DNA of 8,079 bases, taken from the IMG/VR virus record IMGVR_UViG_2657244943_000011, one strand, 5' to 3'. This DNA is from a virus. Its lineage: Duplodnaviria > Heunggongvirae > Uroviricota > Caudoviricetes. The translations under genes were made by a program, and so were the position numbers. Within the stretch, counting starts at the first letter, position 1, and the number at the start of each line of letters is the position of its first letter. The notes beneath the pieces were generated by a model. The model did not search any database and was not told the DNA's origin. It saw only the letters and a list, made by a program, of their open reading frames with translations. Shown here piece after piece: positions 115 to 8,079 of this stretch.

Positions 115-190
115 GCCGATATAGCTCAGTTGGTAGAGCAGCGCATTCGTAATGCGAAGGTCGTAGGTTCGACTCCTATTATCGGCACCA
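115..190 (+). tRNA. thrW: tRNA-Thr (anticodon CGT)
   Basis: 76-nt cloverleaf read directly: acceptor stem GCCGATA pairs with TATCGGC, D-arm GCTC-AGTTGGTA-GAGC, anticodon loop TTCGTAA (anticodon CGT, reads ACG), T-arm GTAGG-TTCGACT-CCTAT, encoded CCA at 188-190. Matches my recollection of E. coli thrW, a known island integration site. Confidence 0.9.
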
Positions 191-356: not shown

Positions 357-1571
357 GTGAAACTCAATGCCCGTCAAATAGACACTGCCAAGCCAAAAGA
401 GAAGGCTTACAAGCTGGCTGATGGTGGTGGTCTGTATCTCTTGGTAAAACCTAGTGGAGGAAAATATTGGCGCTTCAAGTATCGTGTAGCTGGTAAAGAG
501 AAGCTGTTAGCACTAGGTGTGTATCCTGAAGTTACTTTGGCTGATGCTCGTGCAAAACGTGAAGAAGCTAAAAGGGGTATCGCTGGGGGTATCGATCCGA
601 TGGAAGCGAAACGAGAGGAAAAGATTGCCCGGGAAACGCAGTTAAACAACACCTTCAAAGATATTGCCCTTGAGTGGCACAGCAGCAAATTAAAAAAATG
701 GTCTGCTGGTTATGCTTCAGACATCCTCGAAGCCTTCAACAAAGATGTGTTCCCTTACATTGGCAAAAAACCAATCGCCGAAATCAAACCACTTGAACTG
801 CTGAATGTGCTGCGGCGCATCGAGGGGCGCGGTGCTACCGAAAAAGCCAAAAAAGTGAGGCAGCGATGCGGGGAAGTTTTCCGCTATGCAATTGTCACTG
901 GACGTGCTGAGTATAACCCTGCACCGGATCTCACCAGCGCGATGCAAGGTCATGAATCTAATCATTATCCTTTCCTCACAGCCAAAGAATTACCTGATTT
1001 TTTCAAGGCATTGTCCAGTTACTCAGGAAGTGCATTGGTTGTTATGGCGGCTCGTCTACTGATTATCACCGGTTTGCGGACTGGCGAACTGCGCGGTGCA
1101 TTATGGGATGAAATCGATCTCAACAAGGCTATCTGGGAGATACCTGCTTCACGGATGAAAATGCGTCGCCCTCATGTGGTGCCTTTGTCTAAGCAGGCTC
1201 TTTCGCTTATTGGGCAGATTAAAGAATTAACTGGCAATTATCCGCTTATGTTTCCCGGCCGTAATGATCCAAGGAAAACAATGAGCGAGGCTAGCATAAA
1301 CCAAGTATTTAAACGCATCGGCTATAATGGAAAGGTTACTGGTCATGGATTCCGGCACACCATGAGCACCATTTTGCATGAGCAGGGCTATAACACCGCG
1401 TGGATAGAGACGCAGCTCGCACACGTCGATAAAAACTCAATTCGTGGCACATACAACCATGCGCAATATCTGGATGGACGGCGGGAAATGCTTCAGTGGT
1501 ACGCCGATTATATGGATTCGCTCGAGCATGGCGGAAATGTGGTGCATGGTGAGTTCGGAAAATGCGGGTGA
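357..1571 (+). CDS. int: site-specific tyrosine recombinase, P4-type integrase
   Basis: 404-aa ORF, GTG start at 357 with GGAGG 10 nt upstream, TGA stop 1569-1571. N-terminus MKLNARQIDTAKPKEKAYKLADGGGLYL...KYWRFKYR is typical of the P4/CP4-57 integrase arm-binding domain; C-terminal catalytic motifs present (TGLRTGELRG box I, HGFRHT box II, Tyr-containing GTYNHAQYLDGRREM). Directly downstream of a tRNA in the same orientation. Confidence 0.9.
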   Translation: MKLNARQIDTAKPKEKAYKLADGGGLYLLVKPSGGKYWRFKYRVAGKEKLLALGVYPEVTLADARAKREEAKRGIAGGIDPMEAKREEKIARETQLNNTFKDIALEWHSSKLKKWSAGYASDILEAFNKDVFPYIGKKPIAEIKPLELLNVLRRIEGRGATEKAKKVRQRCGEVFRYAIVTGRAEYNPAPDLTSAMQGHESNHYPFLTAKELPDFFKALSSYSGSALVVMAARLLIITGLRTGELRGALWDEIDLNKAIWEIPASRMKMRRPHVVPLSKQALSLIGQIKELTGNYPLMFPGRNDPRKTMSEASINQVFKRIGYNGKVTGHGFRHTMSTILHEQGYNTAWIETQLAHVDKNSIRGTYNHAQYLDGRREMLQWYADYMDSLEHGGNVVHGEFGKCG

Positions 1572-1699
1572 CTGGTTGAGTATACAGTAGTAGACTTTGA
1601 GCGACGAAAGAAAAGGCTGTGTCTAGGGGCGCTCCCGAAAATCCGTACATCTCGACGGACTGGTACAGCCACTACAGTAGAGGACGCTGAGGTGTGCGT

Positions 1700-2497
1700 A
1701 TGATTGATATTCATGCCGAATTAAACGAATACAAAAAAGATTTTATTTCTTTACGTGAATTTCTTGAGGTCGTGCTTAAGGTCGCTGGTGATGATTATGA
1801 TGTTTCAGATGTCATAACTTGGATACTCAGGAGAATAAGCGGAGAACATATCCGCCTGTACACAGTAAATGAATTTAAGCTGTTGGAATCTTTTTGTAAC
1901 CCGTATCGGGATGAATTTGATTATGATGTTCTTTATAGAAATCTGAATGCGGTTCGGAAACGTGGTTGTTTACCTGGTGAGAGGGATGAAAATGGTTTTC
2001 TGGTGTCCGGTTATTGGGAAGATCCCGAATTTGAGAACATTGGATTTATAAGGGGTGAAATTTTCGCAATTTTTCCCGATGTCCTTGACGCGTTAACGAA
2101 GCTGGAAGGCGCTAACTCTTCTGAAAATGACGAGGCACAAGGACGCGATATTGAAAAGAAAGAGTTGCGTACAGAGGATGATTTATTATCCCAAATCGCA
2201 ATGCTGGAAAAAGAAAACGCAGAGTTAAGGGCAAGGATAGAGCAGTTAGAGCAAGAGCGCCCGATACACTTATATAAATACTGGGATAAAGACCCATTAG
2301 CTAAGGCTATTGAGATTAGAAACAGAGAGTGGGCCAATTACGATCCAGAAAATGATTTTGCCACTAGGGGAAATCAAGAAGCGATAACCAGGGAGCTTAA
2401 GCAGTGGGGGGCAAGTAATGCTCTTGCAACGCTCATAGAGAGGACTGCCTGCCCTATTAACCGAGACAACAGCCAAAAGAACGCAAAGCCGGATTAA
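1700..2497 (+). CDS. hypothetical protein, low-GC orphan cargo gene with central acidic linker and coiled-coil segment
   Basis: ORF track frame 1694-2497; I prefer ATG 1700 (GAGG at 1689-1692, 7 nt spacing) over GTG 1694. TAA stop 2495-2497. Three 60-nt samples counted at about 35-42% GC versus about 52% in an int sample. No recognisable catalytic or DNA-binding motif; heptad-like LLSQIAMLEKENAELRARIEQLEQER. Confidence 0.6.
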   Translation: MIDIHAELNEYKKDFISLREFLEVVLKVAGDDYDVSDVITWILRRISGEHIRLYTVNEFKLLESFCNPYRDEFDYDVLYRNLNAVRKRGCLPGERDENGFLVSGYWEDPEFENIGFIRGEIFAIFPDVLDALTKLEGANSSENDEAQGRDIEKKELRTEDDLLSQIAMLEKENAELRARIEQLEQERPIHLYKYWDKDPLAKAIEIRNREWANYDPENDFATRGNQEAITRELKQWGASNALATLIERTACPINRDNSQKNAKPD

Positions 2498-2510: not shown

Positions 2511-2655
2511 ATACCCTGAGGGTGATTTACTGTTACCCTGAGGGTATTTTTTTATCTTCCCCGTCAATTTTACCATCACCCTTAGGGTAGATTTCCTCCC
2601 GATTACCATCACCCTTAGGGTTAATTTCCTTCCGGTAACCATTAGGCCTGAGGGT
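2511..2655. repeat. array of near-palindromic 11-mers ACCCT(G/T)AGGGT including a 33-bp tandem direct repeat; probable regulator/recombinase binding sites upstream of alpA
   Basis: ACCCTGAGGGT at 2513-2523 and 2535-2545; ACCCTTAGGGT at 2578-2588 and 2611-2621; partial GGCCTGAGGGT at 2645-2655. Tandem 33-mers TTACCATCACCCTTAGGGTAGATTTCCTCCCGA (2570-2602) and TTACCATCACCCTTAGGGTTAATTTCCTTCCGG (2603-2635), 29/33 identical. Confidence 0.7.
2535..2554 (+). terminator. possible weak intrinsic terminator after the orphan gene (palindromic 11-mer followed by T7 run)
   Basis: ACCCTGAGGGT followed by A then TTTTTTT (2547-2553), 40-60 nt after the 2497 stop. The stem is short and would need pairing between neighbouring repeat copies, so this is tentative. 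Confidence 0.25.
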
Positions 2656-2724
2656 ATGAAAATATTCGTTATTTCTGTGCCATGATTACCTCGTCAAATT
2701 GAGTAGACGTTATGAGGTAAATAT

Positions 2725-2922
2725 ATGTCAAATACGCTTATTCGTTTAACAGAAGTTCAGCGTAGAACTGGATATAGCAAGGCATGGATTTATCGCCTTA
2801 TGGGGCAAGGTAAATTTCCTGCATCAGTTAAAATTGGCTCGCGAGCTATTGCTTTCGTTGAGAGTGAAATTGACGAGTGGATTAATCAGCGTATTGCTGA
2901 ATCACGCGGAACAGCTACCTGA
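2725..2922 (+). CDS. alpA: AlpA-family (phage Vis/excisionase-like) helix-turn-helix transcriptional regulator
   Basis: 65-aa ORF with GAGGT 6 nt upstream of ATG 2725. Sequence MSNTLIRLTEVQRRTGYSKAWIYRLMGQGKFPASVKIGSRAIAFVESEIDEWI matches the AlpA/Vis HTH pattern as I recall it. Its position after a P4-type int is typical of CP4-57-like and PICI-like islands. Confidence 0.85.
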   Translation: MSNTLIRLTEVQRRTGYSKAWIYRLMGQGKFPASVKIGSRAIAFVESEIDEWINQRIAESRGTAT

Positions 2923-3000
2923 TTAAATGGCTACGGGGCCAGAAGCCCCCAGCTATCCACCAGCAAATAAAAGTAACTTAATTCGATAGCAGGAGTTTTT

Positions 3001-3801
3001 ATGAAACTGCGAAAAACGCCCGTACAGGGGCAGGGCTTCGTTCGGCCTGAAAACCAGAATCTGCAAAATTTCGGCGAAATTATCCCGGTTATTTCCGGCG
3101 TTATTGGCGGGCGTGAAACCAATATTGTTAGCGGCAGAGCGTTGCATAAGGCGTTAGGTGTAGGTCGCGTTTTCCGTTCGTGGATCAAGGGGCGCATTGA
3201 AGAATACGGCTTCACGGAAGGCGTGGATTATGAGGTTGTTGAATATTTGAGCCGACCCGATCCGGTGAGCGCAAAATCTCGCCAGCAAACAGCTCTTGAG
3301 TACATCATTACCGTGAACATGGCGAAAGAACTGGCGATGGTCGAACGCACCGAACAGGGGCGCGCCGTTCGTCAGTACTTCATCAAATGCGAGGAAGAGC
3401 TACACAAGGTTGCGCCTGTACGTTCCGCAGCGTTACGCCGGGAACTGAAAGCCCGTATCACAGTTGCCAGCTACTTTAAGCCAATGTGTGCCGCGCTGGA
3501 GGACTACCGGGCTGAACTGGATAAAAACACTCTACAGCACCACTACACCACGGAAGCCAATATGCTGGCGCGTATCGTGCTGGGTGGCATGACTGCAAAA
3601 CAGTGGGCGCAGGTGAACGGCATCACAGGCGAACCACGCGACCACATGAGCACGTTGCAGCTTGAGCACCTTTCTTACCTTGAGCAGAGCAATATCACGC
3701 TGATTGAGTTAGGCCAGGACTACCACCAGCGGAAGGCTGAATTAATTCGTCTTTCGCAGCGTTGGTTAGCCCGTCGCATGGAGGAAAACAGCCATGTGTA
3801 A
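3001..3801 (+). CDS. phage antirepressor-like protein (AntA/AntB N-terminal domain type)
   Basis: 266-aa ORF, AGGAG 6 nt upstream of ATG 3001, TAA stop 3799-3801. Segment RALHKALGVGRVFRSWIKGRIEEYGFTEGVDYEV...ITVNMAKELAMVERTEQGRAVRQYFIKCEEEL resembles the AntA-type antirepressor N-terminal domain from memory; not verified by search. Confidence 0.6.
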   Translation: MKLRKTPVQGQGFVRPENQNLQNFGEIIPVISGVIGGRETNIVSGRALHKALGVGRVFRSWIKGRIEEYGFTEGVDYEVVEYLSRPDPVSAKSRQQTALEYIITVNMAKELAMVERTEQGRAVRQYFIKCEEELHKVAPVRSAALRRELKARITVASYFKPMCAALEDYRAELDKNTLQHHYTTEANMLARIVLGGMTAKQWAQVNGITGEPRDHMSTLQLEHLSYLEQSNITLIELGQDYHQRKAELIRLSQRWLARRMEENSHV

Positions 3802-4260
3802 CGCTCTGACCGTTACAAAAAGAGAAAGCGCCCCGTTGCCGGAGCGCCTTTGTGAACGAATAGCCTACTGCGCCATATTGCTTACTGTCTACGAGGCAGA
3901 TTATAGCGTTGTGGTCGCACAGAGTGAAGGCGCTGATCACCGTTACTACAGCACGCCAGAAATGCAGAATATTTTGCTGCAAAATGCCGTTGGCCACGCT
4001 GTCCGGAAAGCAAAAAATTTTGCTGGTGGCGCGACTGATGCGATTTTGTCAGGTCGCCAGGTGCTGATCAATCTGATGTCTGATTTCGTTCTGGATAAAA
4101 CAAAGGCGACCGCAGAGAGCCGCCAGTGGAAAAGCTACATACTTGAACGCATCACCAACAATGCCACATTTGCGGCTGGTGGGCAATGTGTCAGCTTTGC
4201 ACCAATGACTCTAGGTTTAACTGAGGGTCATTATGGTGAATATGCTGGCTTGCTGGTGGG
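3794..4260 (+). pseudogene. uncertain ORF / possible gene remnant; good start signals but no credible stop (frame runs on to 5380)
   Basis: ATG 3794 overlaps the upstream stop (ATGTGTAA) and has TGGAGGA 8 nt upstream, the same coupled-junction architecture as real genes downstream. The first ~140 codons look protein-like; beyond about 4200 the translation becomes Cys/Ser-rich and then runs antisense through the minus-strand gene at 4519-4824. The end coordinate is arbitrary. Confidence 0.2.
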
Positions 4261-4518
4261 CTATTCCTGCTCTTTAACATCGCCATGCCGCGATGTTTTC
4301 CAGGTATGCGACCCCATTTTTGTGCGCCTGTACTCTTTAAGGAATTTCTCAAGGATAAACGCACAGGGCGCGAATCTGTCTGACTCATGCTCGTACGCTA
4401 TCTTTCTGCGCTGTCTTTTCCGTGCCGGTGATGGTGTATTGGTTGATTCTTTGTTGGTCATGGCGCTGCCCTGTAAAACGATGCACCGTAGTTCCTCACA
4501 CCACGGCGCTGGTGATGG

Positions 4519-4824
4519 TTACTCCTGTTCTTTGGCCTTGCGCCGCTGGAGTTCTTCACGCGCGACGGTGACGAGTTGCCCGATCTCCTCGGCTGCTTTG
4601 ACACCGATTTTTTCCACCTGCGCCAGTGCATCGAGCGAAGAAACCAGGGGATTTTCTCCGCTTCCTTCTGCCTGGCGGCGGGCGATTTCACCGCGAACGG
4701 CTGTAATCACGAAAGCGGCTATTGTTTCCCCTTCCGTTTTCGAATTTTCCATTTCCTCGATTACATCATGGGGGAAGCGGATATTTTTCATTTGCGATCT
4801 GCTGTTGATGTTTCCTGTTGCCAT
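4519..4824 (-). CDS. putative ribbon-helix-helix (Arc/MetJ/CopG-like) DNA-binding regulator
   Basis: 101-aa minus-strand ORF with well-formed composition, unlike the plus-frame translation of the same DNA. N-terminal KNIRFPHDVIEEME followed by helical GETIAAFVITAVRGEIARRQA fits a beta-strand/helix/helix RHH pattern. Divergent from the small-gene operon across a palindrome-rich intergenic region. Start could be ATG 4824 or the internal ATG 4791; neither has a strong SD. Confidence 0.5.
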   Translation of the reverse strand: MATGNINSRSQMKNIRFPHDVIEEMENSKTEGETIAAFVITAVRGEIARRQAEGSGENPLVSSLDALAQVEKIGVKAAEEIGQLVTVAREELQRRKAKEQE

Positions 4825-5014
4825 CAGAATGTCCGGTTATTTTGAGGTGTGTACACATTACACCAAAAGGTGTGTTGATAAAACACTTGACACTGTAGCA
4901 CACTTAAATCTAATCTGTGTATACACTAATGATTGTGGTGTATATACAGCAACGCCCCGCAGTGGTGGCACACATGCAGGGCGTCTAACCAAACCGTTAA
5001 ACGAGGTAACGATT
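4825..5014. promoter_or_regulatory. divergent promoter/operator region with three perfect 10-bp palindromes
   Basis: TGTGTACACA (4848-4857), GTGTATACAC (4917-4926), TGTATATACA (4939-4948); additional GGTGT/ACACC half-sites; consensus -35 hexamer TTGACA at 4887-4892 and TTGATA at 4875-4880. AT-rich relative to flanks. Confidence 0.5.
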
Positions 5015-5380
5015 ATGGCTGGAACACAGCATACCCAAACTCACCCTAAATTTATATACACCTTCCTGGCGGTGCACCGTGATTGCATAGCTGACGGTAA
5101 AAACACTGTACACGTAGCCGCTGATACGCTGGTTGATGCCTGCGAGATGCTCAATGACATGGGCTATATCTCGGCAACATGGAAAGGGCGCGAAGAAAAC
5201 ACGCTGTTTATTCAGAAATGCGAGAACAATTTTATCTGGCGTTTTATCGCCCTGAGCACAGCACAACCGCGCGTAATTCACATCGAGGCCACCAGCGAAC
5301 AGGAAGCGCGTCAGCAATCTCCTGATGGCTGCGTGATGGTATTCGCTGCCCGTATTCGCCAGGAGGTGCACCATGCATAA
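5015..5380 (+). CDS. hypothetical protein (first gene of small-gene operon)
   Basis: ATG 5015 with GAGGT 7 nt upstream, TAA stop 5378-5380; 122 aa. In frame with the run-on ORF 3794-5380 but with its own initiation signals. Stop overlaps the next start. Confidence 0.6.
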   Translation: MAGTQHTQTHPKFIYTFLAVHRDCIADGKNTVHVAADTLVDACEMLNDMGYISATWKGREENTLFIQKCENNFIWRFIALSTAQPRVIHIEATSEQEARQQSPDGCVMVFAARIRQEVHHA

Positions 5381-5738
5381 CCTGTCAATTTATGACCTTA
5401 ACAGCATTCAGTTTCGTGAGAAATTCACCGAGCAGCTACTGGTTAACGTGGAGAATGGACGCGTGGTAAGTAATTATCACCTGCCGGATGGTGCAATTGC
5501 CGGAAGCGTTGAAGCATTGCTGGAACTGGCAGAACGTGCGCGACTTATTAAGCCGTTAACGAACCATCACGATGATGATCTGCATTTTACCGGACGCATG
5601 GTGAGTCACTACGAAAACGGCGTCGAGGTATCCCGCGAACGGCTGCGTGATGATTGCTGTTTCGGAACACTGCCGGAATTTAGCGAACTGCTGACCCGTT
5701 GCGATTACCGGATCATTCAGGGGGGAAGTCATGGGTAA
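5373..5738 (+). CDS. hypothetical protein
   Basis: 121-aa ORF; strong SD AGGAGGT (5361-5367) 5 nt before ATG 5373; 8-nt overlap ATGCATAA with upstream stop; TAA stop 5736-5738. Confidence 0.65.
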   Translation: MHNLSIYDLNSIQFREKFTEQLLVNVENGRVVSNYHLPDGAIAGSVEALLELAERARLIKPLTNHHDDDLHFTGRMVSHYENGVEVSRERLRDDCCFGTLPEFSELLTRCDYRIIQGGSHG

Positions 5739-5931
5739 TCAGCCAGCAACAATGACAATTACCCTGAATGTGCCAGATGATTTCACCGGGCGCGTACTGG
5801 TTTACCTGGATAAAGGGAAAGTGAAATCACAATGCCGACTGCGAAATAATGAAATTGTAAGTACGGTAGAAGGCTTTTCTGAACTATGTATTCGTGCAGG
5901 AATAAAACCGGAACTGCTGACAGGAAAATAA
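5731..5931 (+). CDS. hypothetical small protein
   Basis: 66-aa ORF; start overlaps upstream stop (ATGGGTAA); purine-rich GGGGGGAAG just upstream; TAA stop 5929-5931. Confidence 0.6.
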   Translation: MGNQPATMTITLNVPDDFTGRVLVYLDKGKVKSQCRLRNNEIVSTVEGFSELCIRAGIKPELLTGK

Positions 5932-5935
5932 AACC

Positions 5936-6226
5936 ATGAAAAAGAAAAATTCTGGCTTTACTGCCAGCGGCCTCTCTCGGTCTGCAATTCGCTCTGGCGA
6001 TATTTACCGCGACACCAGACGTGGGGGACGAGTGGTTATTCGTCACGTTACGCCAGGCAATATCACCTACCGCCGTGAGGCTTACGAATATGACTGCGTA
6101 ATGCCGCGCCGTCAGTTTGAGCGTGATTTTATTCTGGTGGAAAACAAACAATTGGCGGTGGCAAGACGTGCAGCCTCGAATATTAAAAAAATCCGGGCAA
6201 TGTTGGTTGCGGGAGGTAAGAAGTGA
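5936..6226 (+). CDS. hypothetical small basic protein
   Basis: 96-aa ORF 4 nt after the upstream stop; Lys/Arg-rich termini (MKKKNSG..., ...VAGGKK); TGA stop 6224-6226 overlaps the GTG start of the next gene (GTGA). Confidence 0.6.
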   Translation: MKKKNSGFTASGLSRSAIRSGDIYRDTRRGGRVVIRHVTPGNITYRREAYEYDCVMPRRQFERDFILVENKQLAVARRAASNIKKIRAMLVAGGKK

Positions 6227-8079
6227 AAAACGCACCGAATTTAAAATATCAGCCAAAGGATAAATTCACCGAGGTAATCATTTTTGCCGGGACGGATGCT
6301 TACGCCCATGCTCAACACTGGATTGAAAGCGAAGGACGAAAACACGGCGATAACGTGCCACCTGTTTACCTGGGGCCAACGCAACTGGCAGATCTGGCTA
6401 ATATCCGCATTATCGACGATGAGCGCCGCTTTGCGCGTGTTTATATCGCGGGGGAGATAGAGCCAATCCAGATCAATGCTATCGCTGAAAAGCTGGCGCT
6501 GGCTGGCGTACAGGATGCGAAATTATACAAAGGCATCACCGACCGGGAGCCGGAGAACTGGCGCGACTACCTGCAACGGATCCGCGAACAGGCAGAGCGC
6601 GGGGAAACCATTCCTGAAGGAATCGGAATAGCTGGTGGATCACCCGGTAAAACAGACCCCATGAAACCGCATATTACCGAAAAAGACGGGGCGCTCTGGT
6701 ATATCGAGCCAATCCCCAACACCAGGGCAGAGGAGATGAATTATAAAGAAACCTGGCTGAGTGACCGGATGCGCACGGCAGGTATTGGTAACGACGGAAG
6801 GGAAGCGTATCTGATCATTGAAATGATCCCGGAAGGGACACAAAAAATTATTTACGAAGCGATGCCGCGCAATGAAATCGGTATGCCCGCAGGATGGGCG
6901 CGATTACGTGGGCGGGGAGTTGCAATCACTACCAGTGCCCATTTACTGAACAAACTGGCGGAATACCTGCAACGTCATGGAGATCGCACGGTGTGGGAGG
7001 TCACATCAACAGCAGGTTGGCATTGTGGAGCCTATGTTATGCCTGATGGCGAGGTGATTGGTGTGCCTGACCGTCCCGTAGCATTCTGCGGCGGATCTGC
7101 CGCCATCAAAGGCTATATTGTCAGGGGCACGGTGCATGAATGGCGAAATAATGTTGCTTCTCTGATGCGTGGCAATCACTCAATGATGCTTGGGGTGCTG
7201 GTCGGGCTGGCAGCCCCGCTAAATTCCCTTGTGGGTGGTAGTTGTTTTGGTATTCATCTTTTCGCGCAGTCGTCAGCGGGGAAAACCACGACTGTGGAGG
7301 CCGCCACCAGCCTTTATGGCGACCCTGAAATGCTTAAACTCTCGTGGGATGCCACCCGGCACGGGCTGACAGTGGAAGCAGCTGCACGTAATGACGGTTT
7401 TATCCCTATTGATGAAATTGGTCAGGGAGGAAGGGTTAATGACATTGCGCAATCCGCCTACAGCCTGTTTAACGGTGTGGGCAGGATTCAGGGGCGCAAG
7501 GACGGCGGTAATCGTGCGGTAATGCGCTGGAAAATAGCGGCACTAAGCACCGGAGAAGAAGATTTTGAAACCTTCCTGTTAAAAGGGGGAATTGCCCCAA
7601 AGGCAGGGCAACTGGTGCGACTGCTAAGCATTCCCTTTACCGATACAACGGTGTTTAACGGTTATGACGATGGTGATCAACATGCCAGGGCCATAAAGCG
7701 ACTTTCATCAAATTATTGTGGCGCTGCGGGACGTGAGTGGGTGCGCTGGTTATCCGCTCACAAGGAGCTGGCTATCAACACCACTTCAGATAAAGAAAAT
7801 GCCTGGCTGGGAAATCTGCCTGAAAATGCCTCGTCACAGGTAAGGCGAGTGGCATCGCGATTCGCCATGCTGGATGCAGCCGGAGAGCTTGCCACCGCAA
7901 TTACTGGCTGGACAACTGAAGAATGCCGGGAAGCAACGCAACGGGCTTTTGATGACTGGCTACAGGATTTCGGGCTGGAAAACCGGGAAAAATATCAGGT
8001 CATCAGTAAGCGTGCAGCAAGAACCGTATTGACGGGGATGTGTTATTCAGTCGGCAGTGCTACGCGCCAGGGGAGCAGT
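6223..8079 (+). CDS. P-loop NTPase, probable replication primase/helicase-like protein of the island (3' end truncated by window)
   Basis: Open frame 1 from GTG 6223 (in-frame TAA at 6217-6219 just upstream; GGGAGG 6211-6216) to the window end, at least 619 codons; not in the ORF track because it has no stop in the window. Walker A FAQSSAGKTT (about 7261-7290) and Walker B-like GFIPIDEIGQ (about 7396-7425). Large ATPase after small coupled genes is the usual position of the replication protein in P4-family/PICI-like islands. Confidence 0.7.
   Translation, partial: MKNAPNLKYQPKDKFTEVIIFAGTDAYAHAQHWIESEGRKHGDNVPPVYLGPTQLADLANIRIIDDERRFARVYIAGEIEPIQINAIAEKLALAGVQDAKLYKGITDREPENWRDYLQRIREQAERGETIPEGIGIAGGSPGKTDPMKPHITEKDGALWYIEPIPNTRAEEMNYKETWLSDRMRTAGIGNDGREAYLIIEMIPEGTQKIIYEAMPRNEIGMPAGWARLRGRGVAITTSAHLLNKLAEYLQRHGDRTVWEVTSTAGWHCGAYVMPDGEVIGVPDRPVAFCGGSAAIKGYIVRGTVHEWRNNVASLMRGNHSMMLGVLVGLAAPLNSLVGGSCFGIHLFAQSSAGKTTTVEAATSLYGDPEMLKLSWDATRHGLTVEAAARNDGFIPIDEIGQGGRVNDIAQSAYSLFNGVGRIQGRKDGGNRAVMRWKIAALSTGEEDFETFLLKGGIAPKAGQLVRLLSIPFTDTTVFNGYDDGDQHARAIKRLSSNYCGAAGREWVRWLSAHKELAINTTSDKENAWLGNLPENASSQVRRVASRFAMLDAAGELATAITGWTTEECREATQRAFDDWLQDFGLENREKYQVISKRAARTVLTGMCYSVGSATRQGSS

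Follow-up and report, generated by a model that had tools for sequence, protein, structure and literature searches.

The alpA-antA region analyzed here is best explained as the boundary between the Integration and Bro zones of a PICI of the EcCIMP1 lineage at thrW, in which AlpA would act as the switch and the AntA-like protein would be a DNA-binding protein made on induction. We assign this reading a probability of about 70%. The window, by which we mean the whole stretch of DNA that was analyzed (8,079 nt), is a satellite island of the EcCIMP1-like PICI lineage of E. coli, seated at the thrW tRNA gene. A preliminary description had named alpA, an Ant-like gene 78 bp downstream and a GC-rich hairpin between them as possible parts of one induction module. 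Both genes and their spacing are confirmed, far beyond chance.

Island Identity and Layout

The genes in the window follow the order int, alpA, antA-like, icd, primase (Table 1). As is typical of a PICI, the integrase lies at one end, beside the att site in the tRNA-Thr gene, and alpA and the primase are co-oriented with int, the primase being truncated in the window copy. The integrase is 97% identical to that of EcCIMP1, and AlpA is 81% identical to the functionally tested AlpA of the same element. The earlier reading of the element as a PICI-like island is supported. EcCIMP1 (E. coli MP1; Pick, Stadel & Raivio 2025, PMC11773190; GenBank OR778291) is the closest studied relative. It occupies the same tRNA-Thr site by proA, to which thrW is also adjacent in E. 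coli 55989, and shares the order int, alpA, antA, icd, DUF927-type primase. In EcCIMP1 a 143-aa gene separates alpA from antA, ash and the IsrK and C4 RNAs precede icd, and there are a second alpA gene (alpA_1) and captured P22-like ejection genes. In the window, by contrast, orf267 separates int from alpA, antA follows alpA directly, and the position of ash/C4 is taken by ylcI/ynfO genes on the minus strand.

Table 1. Positions of the features in the window
Feature	Position	Strand	Evidence or remark
tRNA-Thr (CGU), thrW	115-190	+	ARAGORN; Rfam tRNA, 71.8 bits; integration site (attL side)
Tyrosine integrase (int), 404 aa	357-1571	+	Pfam Arm-DNA-bind_3, Phage_int_M, Phage_integrase
int-alpA RNA motif	1616-1683	+	Rfam RF02996; cmscan 44.2 bits, gathering score 35.8, E 8.9e-7
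orf267	1694-2497	+	Variable accessory gene between int and alpA
Five ACCCTNAGGGT palindromes	2513-2656		Fifth degenerate; candidate operator array of the alpA promoter
alpA leader hairpin	2686-2720	+	Anti-SD TTACCTCGT (2686-2694) pairs with the alpA Shine-Dalgarno ATGAGGTAA (2712-2720)
alpA, 65 aa	2725-2922	+	AlpA-family winged-helix regulator/excision factor
Spacer hairpin GGGGC-CAGAA-GCCCC	2935-2949	+	GC-rich core; extended by GCT/AGC to 2930-2953
antA-like gene, 266 aa	3001-3801	+	Two-domain Bro-network protein
GC-rich hairpin, 11 bp	3825-3850		Just 3' of antA; terminator scan, minus strand: 11 pairs then CTCTTTTTGT
hyp66	4261-4461	-	
YlcI/YnfO family protein	4519-4824	-	NCBIfam YlcI_YnfO_N, E 8.2e-18
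Replication zone	5159-8006	+	icd-like gene, orf121, orf66, DUF4222, DUF927 primase
icd-like gene	5159-5380	+	
DUF4222 gene	5936-6226	+	
DUF927 primase	6223 onward	+	Interrupted at 8006 by one end of an IS66-family element

The layout also resembles the published four-zone plan of Gram-negative PICIs, comprising Integration (Int, AlpA), Bro network (including AntA), Replication and Late zones (PMC10111431). In both, int and alpA share an orientation at the left end and are followed by Bro-network genes and a primase, and AntA is among the ten Pfam models listed for the Bro network. The window departs from the plan in that its Bro zone holds no Rfam immunity RNA and the Late zone lies outside it. 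The pairing of alpA with antA fits the plan, probably as the point at which the Integration zone meets the Bro zone. The left operon of P4 (vis, eta, cI, kil, epsilon, alpha), as outlined in PMC10111431, is alike in that the AlpA-family gene vis is followed directly by the Bro-network gene eta, an immunity element and the primase. There, however, translation of eta is coupled to that of vis and the cI RNA lies within eta, whereas the genes in the window stand 78 bp apart, with no detectable C4/cI-type RNA and no detectable ash/epsilon. Rfam gave no immunity RNA of the P4/P1 type (C4, IsrK) in the window even at E ≤ 10, although relatives with ash carry both; C4 and IsrK are present in related loci L002, L009, L025 and L034. 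Hallmarks of a P4-like satellite are missing as well: tblastn found no Ash (P4 epsilon-like), not even a remnant, in the window, and psu, delta and sid are unannotated in the RefSeq annotation of the E. coli 55989 island.

Several local features set this copy apart. The int-alpA RNA motif, found 3' of int in six of the eight related loci scanned, is followed in the window by orf267 rather than by alpA. The orf267 product gave no Pfam, PHROG, NCBIfam or PADLOC matches, and the same slot in L009, L029, L036 and L041 holds homologues of 29-35% identity. The minus-strand pair at 4261-4824, for which the RefSeq annotation of E. coli 55989 was consulted, fills the place where EcCIMP1-type relatives have ash together with the RNAs IsrK and C4; its YlcI/YnfO protein also has a weak Pfam match to an Rv0623-like transcription factor family. 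A 528-aa ORF at 3794-5380 was not accepted as a genuine gene and was treated as mostly noncoding or a shadow ORF. Family support is confined to its final ∼73 residues (Icd-like), and the rest overlaps the minus-strand genes and is unannotated in RefSeq. By comparison with E. coli 55989, the IS junction GTAAGCG begins at 8006 and matches IS66-family transposase regions. Because the primase is interrupted by the IS in the source genome, this island copy may be defective. The intact island of E. coli 55989, as delimited by the RefSeq annotation alone, measures about 15 kb between thrW and the PARIS-like pair at its end. That annotation names no structural or lysis gene in the island and lists several hypothetical proteins, and a PerC-family gene also follows within the island; the window itself ends inside the primase. 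Some 3% of the complete genomes of E. coli contain the island family; strain 55989 and O104:H4 outbreak strains are among its carriers.

AlpA as a Candidate Master Activator

AlpA belongs to the Phage_AlpA family by its match to the Pfam model (PF05930, residues 5-53, E 2.4e-19; score 69.4 bits, cut-off 21) and as a small protein co-oriented with a tyrosine integrase; it also matches HTH_17. Its gene lies on the same strand as int, 1.15 kb downstream, with orf267 between them. A PDB sequence search returned a sole match, 8c3t, deposited as "AlpA family phage regulatory protein", with no second match that could be the Pseudomonas aeruginosa AlpA of the cryo-EM paper (PMC9371919). With 8c3t as the only hit, we dropped the analogy to a Q-like antiterminator of the P. 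aeruginosa style (PMC7969949, PMC9371919).

In EcCIMP1, alpA is needed for excision, circularization and transduction, and its deletion abolishes excision and transduction (PMC11773190). The helper phage Kapi1 switches on the EcCIMP1 alpA promoter, which is also positively autoregulated, and alpA-lux is on only in induced Kapi1 lysogens and is weaker when alpA is missing (PMC11773190). For EcCIMP1, dependence of induction, excision and packaging on a helper has been demonstrated with Kapi1. EcCICFT073 (Fillol-Salom et al. 2018) gives a similar picture, with AlpA as a helper-induced activator and int outside AlpA control (PMC6092414). The preliminary description had AlpA-family proteins activating integrase expression and excision or downstream operons in CP4-57-like and PICI-like islands. 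The experiments on the EcCIMP1 and EcCICFT073 proteins agree with a part in excision and island activation; control of int, absent in EcCICFT073, is the part left unsupported. By analogy with these elements, AlpA is a candidate master activator of the island.

A Conserved Gene Pair and Its Spacer

An AlpA-family ORF lies just upstream of the AntA-like gene, on the same strand and 14-545 nt away, in 42 of the 47 species-level loci, and the pairing spans loci with distant AlpA and Int types. Because the two genes recur together so often, they are, as judged by sequence comparison, a conserved module. In most relatives an additional gene, of 143 aa, separates alpA from antA; the window lacks it. 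In sister E. coli islands the slot of the AntA-like gene is taken by other Bro-network genes (Rha, GIY-YIG, BRO-N).

The spacer (2923-3000, exactly 78 bp) contains no predicted promoter or terminator, and an AGGAG at 2991-2995 stands 5 nt before the ATG of the antA-like gene at 3001. The GC-rich hairpin described earlier is physically present between the two genes, without statistical or comparative support for a function. The 91-nt hairpin region folds at -18.7 kcal/mol, against -16.4 ± 3.0 kcal/mol for shuffled sequences (z = -0.78), and 39 of the 200 shuffles fold as well. The core stem is 5 bp long, the downstream sequence (CAGCTATCCACCAGC) has no T-run, and the terminator scan did not report the structure. 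A near-identical E. ruysiae relative keeps the stem, which is missing from Serratia relatives with the same alpA-antA adjacency. With a fold no better than that of shuffles, no T-tract, and conservation in near-identical relatives alone, the hairpin was rejected as a terminator or attenuator, and its proposed place in an induction module is not sustained.

The minus-strand signal of the 11-bp hairpin just 3' of antA is terminator-like for the converging minus-strand genes, and we infer that the transcription unit of alpA and antA probably also ends there.

Palindromes and a Leader Hairpin Upstream of alpA

The palindromes upstream of alpA give nine strand-matches to ACCCTNAGGGT where 1.05 are expected, a count reached by none of 200 shuffles, with start-to-start spacings of 22, 43, 33 and about 34 nt. 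Raoultella (L009) and Symbiopectobacterium (L034) also have this motif ahead of alpA, and other islands carry different palindromes at the matching place. The recognition-helix residues of AlpA are nearly identical across islands whose palindromes differ, with L003 as a possible exception, and for this reason the palindromes may not be AlpA sites. We also considered whether palindrome type is tied to orf267, Int type or the AntA-like protein, and found no correlation.

Between the palindromes and alpA, RNAfold pairs the Shine-Dalgarno sequence within a leader hairpin in the window and in most of the 25 relatives folded, the arms in the relatives being different in sequence and mutually complementary. 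Taken alone, the hairpin in the window is not significant (125 of 1000 shuffles). A covariance model recovered its own sequence class alone, leaving two classes unmerged, and MAFFT set these two leader classes in different registers; the pairing evidence is descriptive. We note that helper sensing, if present here, would be sited upstream of alpA rather than in the spacer.

The AntA-like Protein

The AntA-like protein consists of an AntA domain (PF08346, residues 43-117, E 6.8e-23, 81.5 bits against a Pfam cut-off of 27), a long helix, and a conserved C-terminal helical domain (residues ∼130-266) that matches no Pfam model. It is 58% identical to its EcCIMP1 counterpart and matches the PHROG "anti-repressor Ant" families. 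The C-terminal domain is strongly conserved, and among its ten distant homologues the N-terminal partner is AntA in six, KilA-N in three and Phage_pRha in one. Carriage of the same C-terminal module on different N-terminal domains places the protein in the Bro network of DNA-interactive proteins with shuffled domains (Iyer et al. 2002; PMC10111431). Homologues also stand alone among hypothetical proteins in Edwardsiella phage EPP-1, and in Edwardsiella loci with no homologues of int, AlpA or the primase.

The sole studied AntA-domain protein that we found, AriS of Listeria phage phi10403S (PMC9043618), likewise carries an N-terminal AntA domain on a two-domain regulator, and in its homologues this domain swaps with Bro-N and Rha. 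It differs at the C-terminus, which in AriS is ANT/KilAC and in the window protein is the helical domain described above. The AntA domain of AriS tunes phage transcription and does not act by repressor binding, and the same paper calls the exact function of AntA and ANT domains still unclear. The structural neighbors of the window protein are KilA-N, Bro-N, MSV199 and T5orf172 proteins. Its best structural match is the DNA-binding protein DdrC of Deinococcus radiodurans (PDB 7qvb, 7udi, 8u0g), a remote similarity (16-18% identity, TM 0.3-0.43, model pTM 0.51) that concerns fold and not function, DdrC having a DNA-damage response context. A PDB sequence search gave only chance-level apolipoprotein E matches.

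Satellites are known to derepress their helpers, as P4 does through epsilon, and a true antirepressor would in the same way inactivate the repressor of a resident helper prophage, as epsilon does that of P2 (C), so that the island would induce its helper once AlpA is on. An early, AlpA-proximal gene that passes the Pfam "AntA/AntB antirepressor" model and the PHROG anti-repressor families would suit such a role. However, the protein has no similarity to P1 Ant1 (BLASTP E 0.2), whose domain is ANT/KilAC (PF03374) rather than AntA, and no ANT, P22_AR or Phage_ASH domain in Pfam; on these two comparisons, no homology to a functional antirepressor was found. The AntA match is limited to the N-terminal 75 residues, and the fold, closest to DdrC, is like that of DNA-binding proteins, although such a fold would be compatible with an additional protein-binding (antirepressor) activity. 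The C-terminal domain is strongly conserved, and the gene occurs from E. coli to Xenorhabdus in islands that differ in their Int, AlpA and immunity modules, which is unexpected for a partner co-evolving with diverse repressors, and related islands carry their P4-epsilon-type candidate antirepressor as a separate gene, ash, absent from the window. Even for AntA/ANT domains at large the function is called unclear (PMC9043618). We consider an antirepressor role improbable; the Ant-type antirepressor of the preliminary description is unsupported, and the term describes this protein in name only.

The protein might instead act on the island's own immunity/replication switch by binding the ylcI/ynfO-icd divergent region (4825-5158) or the origin and opening the icd-primase operon or, equivalently, by countering the local immunity module (YlcI/YnfO here, C4/IsrK in relatives). 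The DNA-binding type of architecture and the place of the gene, immediately before the immunity/replication region in every island, suit this, and the EcCIMP1 authors note that, among EcCIMP1-like elements, conservation is highest for the antirepressor, Ash and primase genes, a pattern suggestive of a core role in the island. Yet the AntA-like protein is unchanged where the immunity module varies between protein and RNA, no shared DNA motif was found, and homologues also stand alone in Edwardsiella phage EPP-1 and in Edwardsiella loci that lack homologues of int, AlpA and the primase. We regard this role as doubtful. Somewhat less probable still is an interference or antiphage factor that binds helper or competitor DNA to repress phage genes, or a single-gene defense. 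Its C-terminal domain does match the PADLOC candidate PDC-S22 (E 8e-10), but over only 85 residues, and PDC-S22 is a guilt-by-association candidate whose link to defense may be an artifact of satellites sitting in, or carrying, defense hotspots. Precedents come from CapR of the Vibrio PLE, a Bro-network protein that represses the helper capsid promoter (cited in PMC10111431), from the AriS AntA domain, which lowers phage transcription and virion yield (PMC9043618), and from the superinfection immunity that EcCIMP1 is reported to add against its helper. A broader proposal, which we hold as tentative and yet as the least unlikely of these alternatives, makes the protein a core DNA-binding effector of the PICI lineage and not an antirepressor, one whose DdrC-like architecture and C-terminal domain would act on the DNA of the helper phage or the island and might repress helper genes or organize island DNA for replication or packaging. 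Separately, it places helper sensing in two layers at the alpA leader, a lineage-specific array of palindromic operators and the SD-sequestering hairpin, the latter gating alpA translation.

Proposed Mechanism and Implications

Under our preferred reading, that of an Integration/Bro zone boundary with AlpA as the switch, the lytic cycle of a helper phage would turn on the alpA promoter, as it does in relatives; the promoter region here would comprise the five ACCCTNAGGGT palindromes and the leader hairpin that is predicted to pair with the alpA ribosome-binding site. AlpA, again as in relatives, would boost its own expression, switch on downstream island genes and, with Int, excise and circularize the island. 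The antA-like gene is probably co-transcribed with alpA, judging from a spacer with no promoter or terminator, its own AGGAG, and the strong hairpin after the gene, and from such co-transcription it would follow that the protein is made only on induction. Its domains and fold point to a DNA-binding protein, probably dimeric, made up of an AntA domain of winged-helix/KilA-N-like type, a long helix and a conserved helical bundle. In the induced cycle it would most likely regulate the transcription or the DNA transactions of either the island or its helper, and it probably does not bind and inactivate a prophage repressor.

Induction of Gram-negative PICIs is only partly understood, and the helper-encoded factor that induces alpA was not identified in the 2018 study (PMC6092414). 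For enterobacterial PICIs, we found no Bro-zone gene whose function had been tested. Little about the locus itself is of a new kind. Comparing 47 species shows that the AntA-like gene, under its misleading name, is among the most constant partners of alpA, and that the region upstream of alpA carries lineage-specific palindrome arrays and a hairpin at the ribosome-binding site, which are concrete targets in the search for the helper signal. Because the E. coli 55989 copy carries a PARIS-like defense pair, mobilization of this island is relevant to the spread of defense systems.

The alpA/antA-like Pair and Its Island

The preliminary description placed an antirepressor-like gene 78 bp downstream of an AlpA-family gene, and this arrangement is confirmed by the Pfam Phage_AlpA and AntA matches, the PHROG matches, and the coordinates. 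The pair had already been annotated, and the island is of a described kind, a close relative of which has been tested experimentally. Among studied elements the nearest is this relative, EcCIMP1, a PICI in E. coli MP1 that uses the same tRNA-Thr integration site; identity between the two is 97% for the integrase, 81% for AlpA, and 58% for the AntA/AntB protein. Apart from its last 73 bases, the window is 99.8-100% identical to chromosomal islands of 27 complete E. coli genomes (among them 55989 and some of serotype O104:H4), and no extended match was found in sequenced phages. The alpA-antA stretch is present at at least 80% coverage in 146 of 5426 complete E. coli genomes.

Features of the window
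Feature	Position	Strand	Remarks
tRNA-Thr(CGU)	115-190		start of window
Tyrosine integrase (int)	357-1571	+	
int-alpA RNA motif (Rfam RF02996)	1616-1683	+	44.2 bits vs gathering score 35.8
orf267	1694-2497	+	267 aa; no family match
Non-coding stretch	between orf267 and alpA		230 bp
Five palindromes ACCCTNAGGGT	2513-2656		upstream of alpA; starts 2513, 2535, 2578, 2611; degenerate copy 2645
alpA leader hairpin	2686-2720		TTACCTCGT (2686-2694) pairs with ATGAGGTAA (2712-2720), which holds the Shine-Dalgarno sequence
alpA	2725-2922	+	65 aa; Pfam Phage_AlpA, E 2.4e-19
alpA/antA-like spacer			78 bp
antA-like ORF	3001-3801	+	266 aa; Pfam AntA, residues 43-117 (E 6.8e-23); several PHROG "anti-repressor Ant" families
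C-terminal domain of AntA-like protein	3388-3798		residues 130-266, ~135 aa; no Pfam model
528-codon open frame	3794-5380		ATG overlaps antA stop codon (ATGTGTAA); runs through two minus-strand genes into Icd-like gene
YlcI/YnfO-family gene + small ORF	4261-4824	-	
IS66-family element end (GTAAGCG...)	8006-8079		in DUF927 primase gene

In E. coli 55989 the island is bounded by thrW/proA and pao genes, and its RefSeq order is int, a hypothetical gene, an HTH regulator, antA/AntB, two minus-strand genes (one YlcI/YnfO), the Icd-like gene, two hypothetical genes, DUF4222, the DUF927 primase, ProQ/FinO, PerC, several hypothetical genes, an AAA ATPase, and a DUF4435 protein. Outside the window, this intact island also holds ProQ/FinO-like and PerC-family genes, and its AAA ATPase/DUF4435 pair (25245-27201 of the 55989 locus, L001) matches AriA (E 5e-43) and AriB (E 3.6e-22) of PARIS. 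The primase gene is intact in other strains; in the window one end of an IS66-family element breaks it at about codon 596 of 710 (position 8006), so this copy of the island is probably crippled and replication-defective.

We sampled 47 loci, one per species, each encoding a relative of the AntA-like protein. An AlpA-family ORF on the same strand ends 14-545 nt upstream of the antA-like gene in 42 of them, including loci with integrases only 25-34% identical, whose AlpA lies below the reach of tblastn and still passes Pfam. All five exceptions come from Edwardsiella, and neither int nor AlpA nor primase homologues were found at these loci; Edwardsiella phage EPP-1 encodes a 63%-identical homologue of the AntA-like protein. 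A 143-aa gene separates the two genes in about two-thirds of the islands, the window being in the minority where they are adjacent. The order 3' of antA, (DUF4222), (ash), icd, primase, PerC, is equally conserved. An alpA gene followed by a Bro gene has already been described, with P4 vis-eta as the classical counterpart (PMC10111431), and sister E. coli islands carry Rha, GIY-YIG, or BRO-N genes in the slot directly after alpA.

Sequences Flanking alpA

The int-alpA RNA motif lies directly 3' of int, as it does, far from alpA, in six of eight relatives scanned; the next gene is orf267, and alpA follows 1 kb further downstream. Searches of Pfam, PHROGs, NCBIfam, and PADLOC gave no match to orf267. 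A few other islands have a weak homologue (29-35% identity) at this position. Elsewhere the position is taken by unrelated genes (216 aa in island locus L008, 327 aa in L037), which suggests that the accessory gene carried here may vary between islands.

The number of palindromes upstream of alpA was reached by none of 200 shuffles, and their start-to-start spacings (22, 43, 33, and about 34 nt) appear close to whole helical turns. The 55989 array lacks one 33-bp unit. The same motif precedes alpA in Raoultella (L009) and Symbiopectobacterium (L034) islands, and other islands have different palindromes in the same place. Islands that differ in their palindromes hardly differ in the AlpA recognition helix; the palindromes may therefore be recognised by a factor other than AlpA, perhaps a helper signal.

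Taken for the window by itself, the leader hairpin does not reach significance (125 of 1000 shuffles), and EcCIMP1, unlike the window, lacks it. RNAfold also pairs the Shine-Dalgarno region in most of 25 related leaders, with differing, mutually complementary arms (CTCGTAA/TTACGAG, CTCCCGT/ACGGGAG, GCTCCTGTAG/CTACAGGAGC, GCTCCTATAG/CTATAGGAG), several G-U pairs, and apparently compensatory changes between arms, a pattern that suggests translational gating of alpA.

The GC-rich hairpin noticed between the two genes (GGGGC-CAGAA-GCCCC, 2935-2949) is physically present, but nothing speaks for a function: the predicted fold of the region is no more stable than that of shuffled sequence (z = -0.78), no T-run follows, and the terminator scan did not report it. 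The only relative to keep it is a near-identical one from E. ruysiae; Serratia relatives with the same alpA-antA adjacency lack it. The hairpin is evidence of nothing.

Alternative Modules between antA and icd

Either of two modules fills the slot between antA and icd. EcCIMP1 and others (L002, L009, L025, L034) carry ash with IsrK and C4 RNAs upstream of icd, a likeness to P4 and P1; the window carries the minus-strand YlcI/YnfO-family gene with its small ORF, and no IsrK or C4 RNA was found in it. This alternation suggests two immunity modules. YlcI/YnfO weakly matches Rv0623-like antitoxin-type transcription factors, which makes it a candidate protein repressor. Family support in the 528-codon frame is confined to its last ~73 aa. 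Residues 1-41 of EcCIMP1 Icd weakly match 5015-5140 in the same frame, which points to a possible extension or duplication of the Icd-like gene. The equivalent ATG, overlapping the stop, is the start of a BRO-N or DUF4222 gene in sister islands.

The AntA-like Protein and a Model of Induction

That the AntA-like protein is literally an antirepressor, as the PHROG names and the resemblance noted in the preliminary description would suggest, seems to us quite unlikely. The Pfam AntA name applies to 75 residues only, and the proven antirepressor P1 Ant1 has a different domain (ANT/KilAC) and shows no similarity (E 0.2). In EcCIMP1-type relatives the candidate antirepressor, of P4-epsilon type, is a separate gene, ash, which was not found in the window. 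The protein is also strongly conserved even though the islands that encode it differ in integrase, AlpA variant, and immunity module; this favours a target that is itself conserved over a repressor specific to a helper.

In an alignment of 14 family members, the C-terminal half (~130-266), for which there is no Pfam or NCBIfam model, is better conserved than the N-terminal part. When 1.84 billion representatives were scanned in full with HMMER, this half returned only ~250 50%-identity clusters, typically of 210-280-aa proteins with the domain C-terminal. Among ten distant members the N-terminal domain is AntA in six, KilA-N in three, and Rha in one, an alternation that reads as classical Bro-network shuffling. 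The domain also matches the PADLOC defence candidate PDC-S22 (E 8e-10, 85 residues), which may merely reflect that satellites sit among defence genes. The sole AntA-domain protein for which we found experimental data, Listeria AriS, lowers its own phage's transcription through this domain, and its authors note that the exact function of such domains is still unclear (PMC9043618). We suggest that the label "antirepressor" should be replaced by "Bro-network DNA-binding protein of unknown function".

Support for the role proposed for AlpA is partial. EcCIMP1 excises only with its helper phage Kapi1 present; excision, circularisation, and transduction all need the int-adjacent alpA; and the alpA promoter reporter responds to the induced helper, DNA damage alone being insufficient, with a weaker response when alpA is missing (PMC11773190). 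EcCICFT073 gives the same picture, but int is not under AlpA control there (PMC6092414), contrary to the activation of integrase expression that had been proposed. By extension from these relatives, an induced helper phage would activate the alpA promoter, and AlpA would amplify its own synthesis, turn on island genes, and enable Int-dependent excision. The antA-like gene has its own AGGAG 5 nt upstream of the ATG, the 78-bp spacer contains no promoter-like or terminator-like site, and a strong hairpin (3825-3850) lies just 3' of the antA-like stop, facing the converging minus-strand genes; this anatomy suggests that it is the second gene of the alpA transcript. We place the overall model at a probability of roughly 0.7, and would go above this for AlpA and below it for the AntA-like protein. 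Judging from its fold and domain logic, the AntA-like protein would bind DNA, probably as a dimer, and act as a regulator or architectural factor in the induced cycle.
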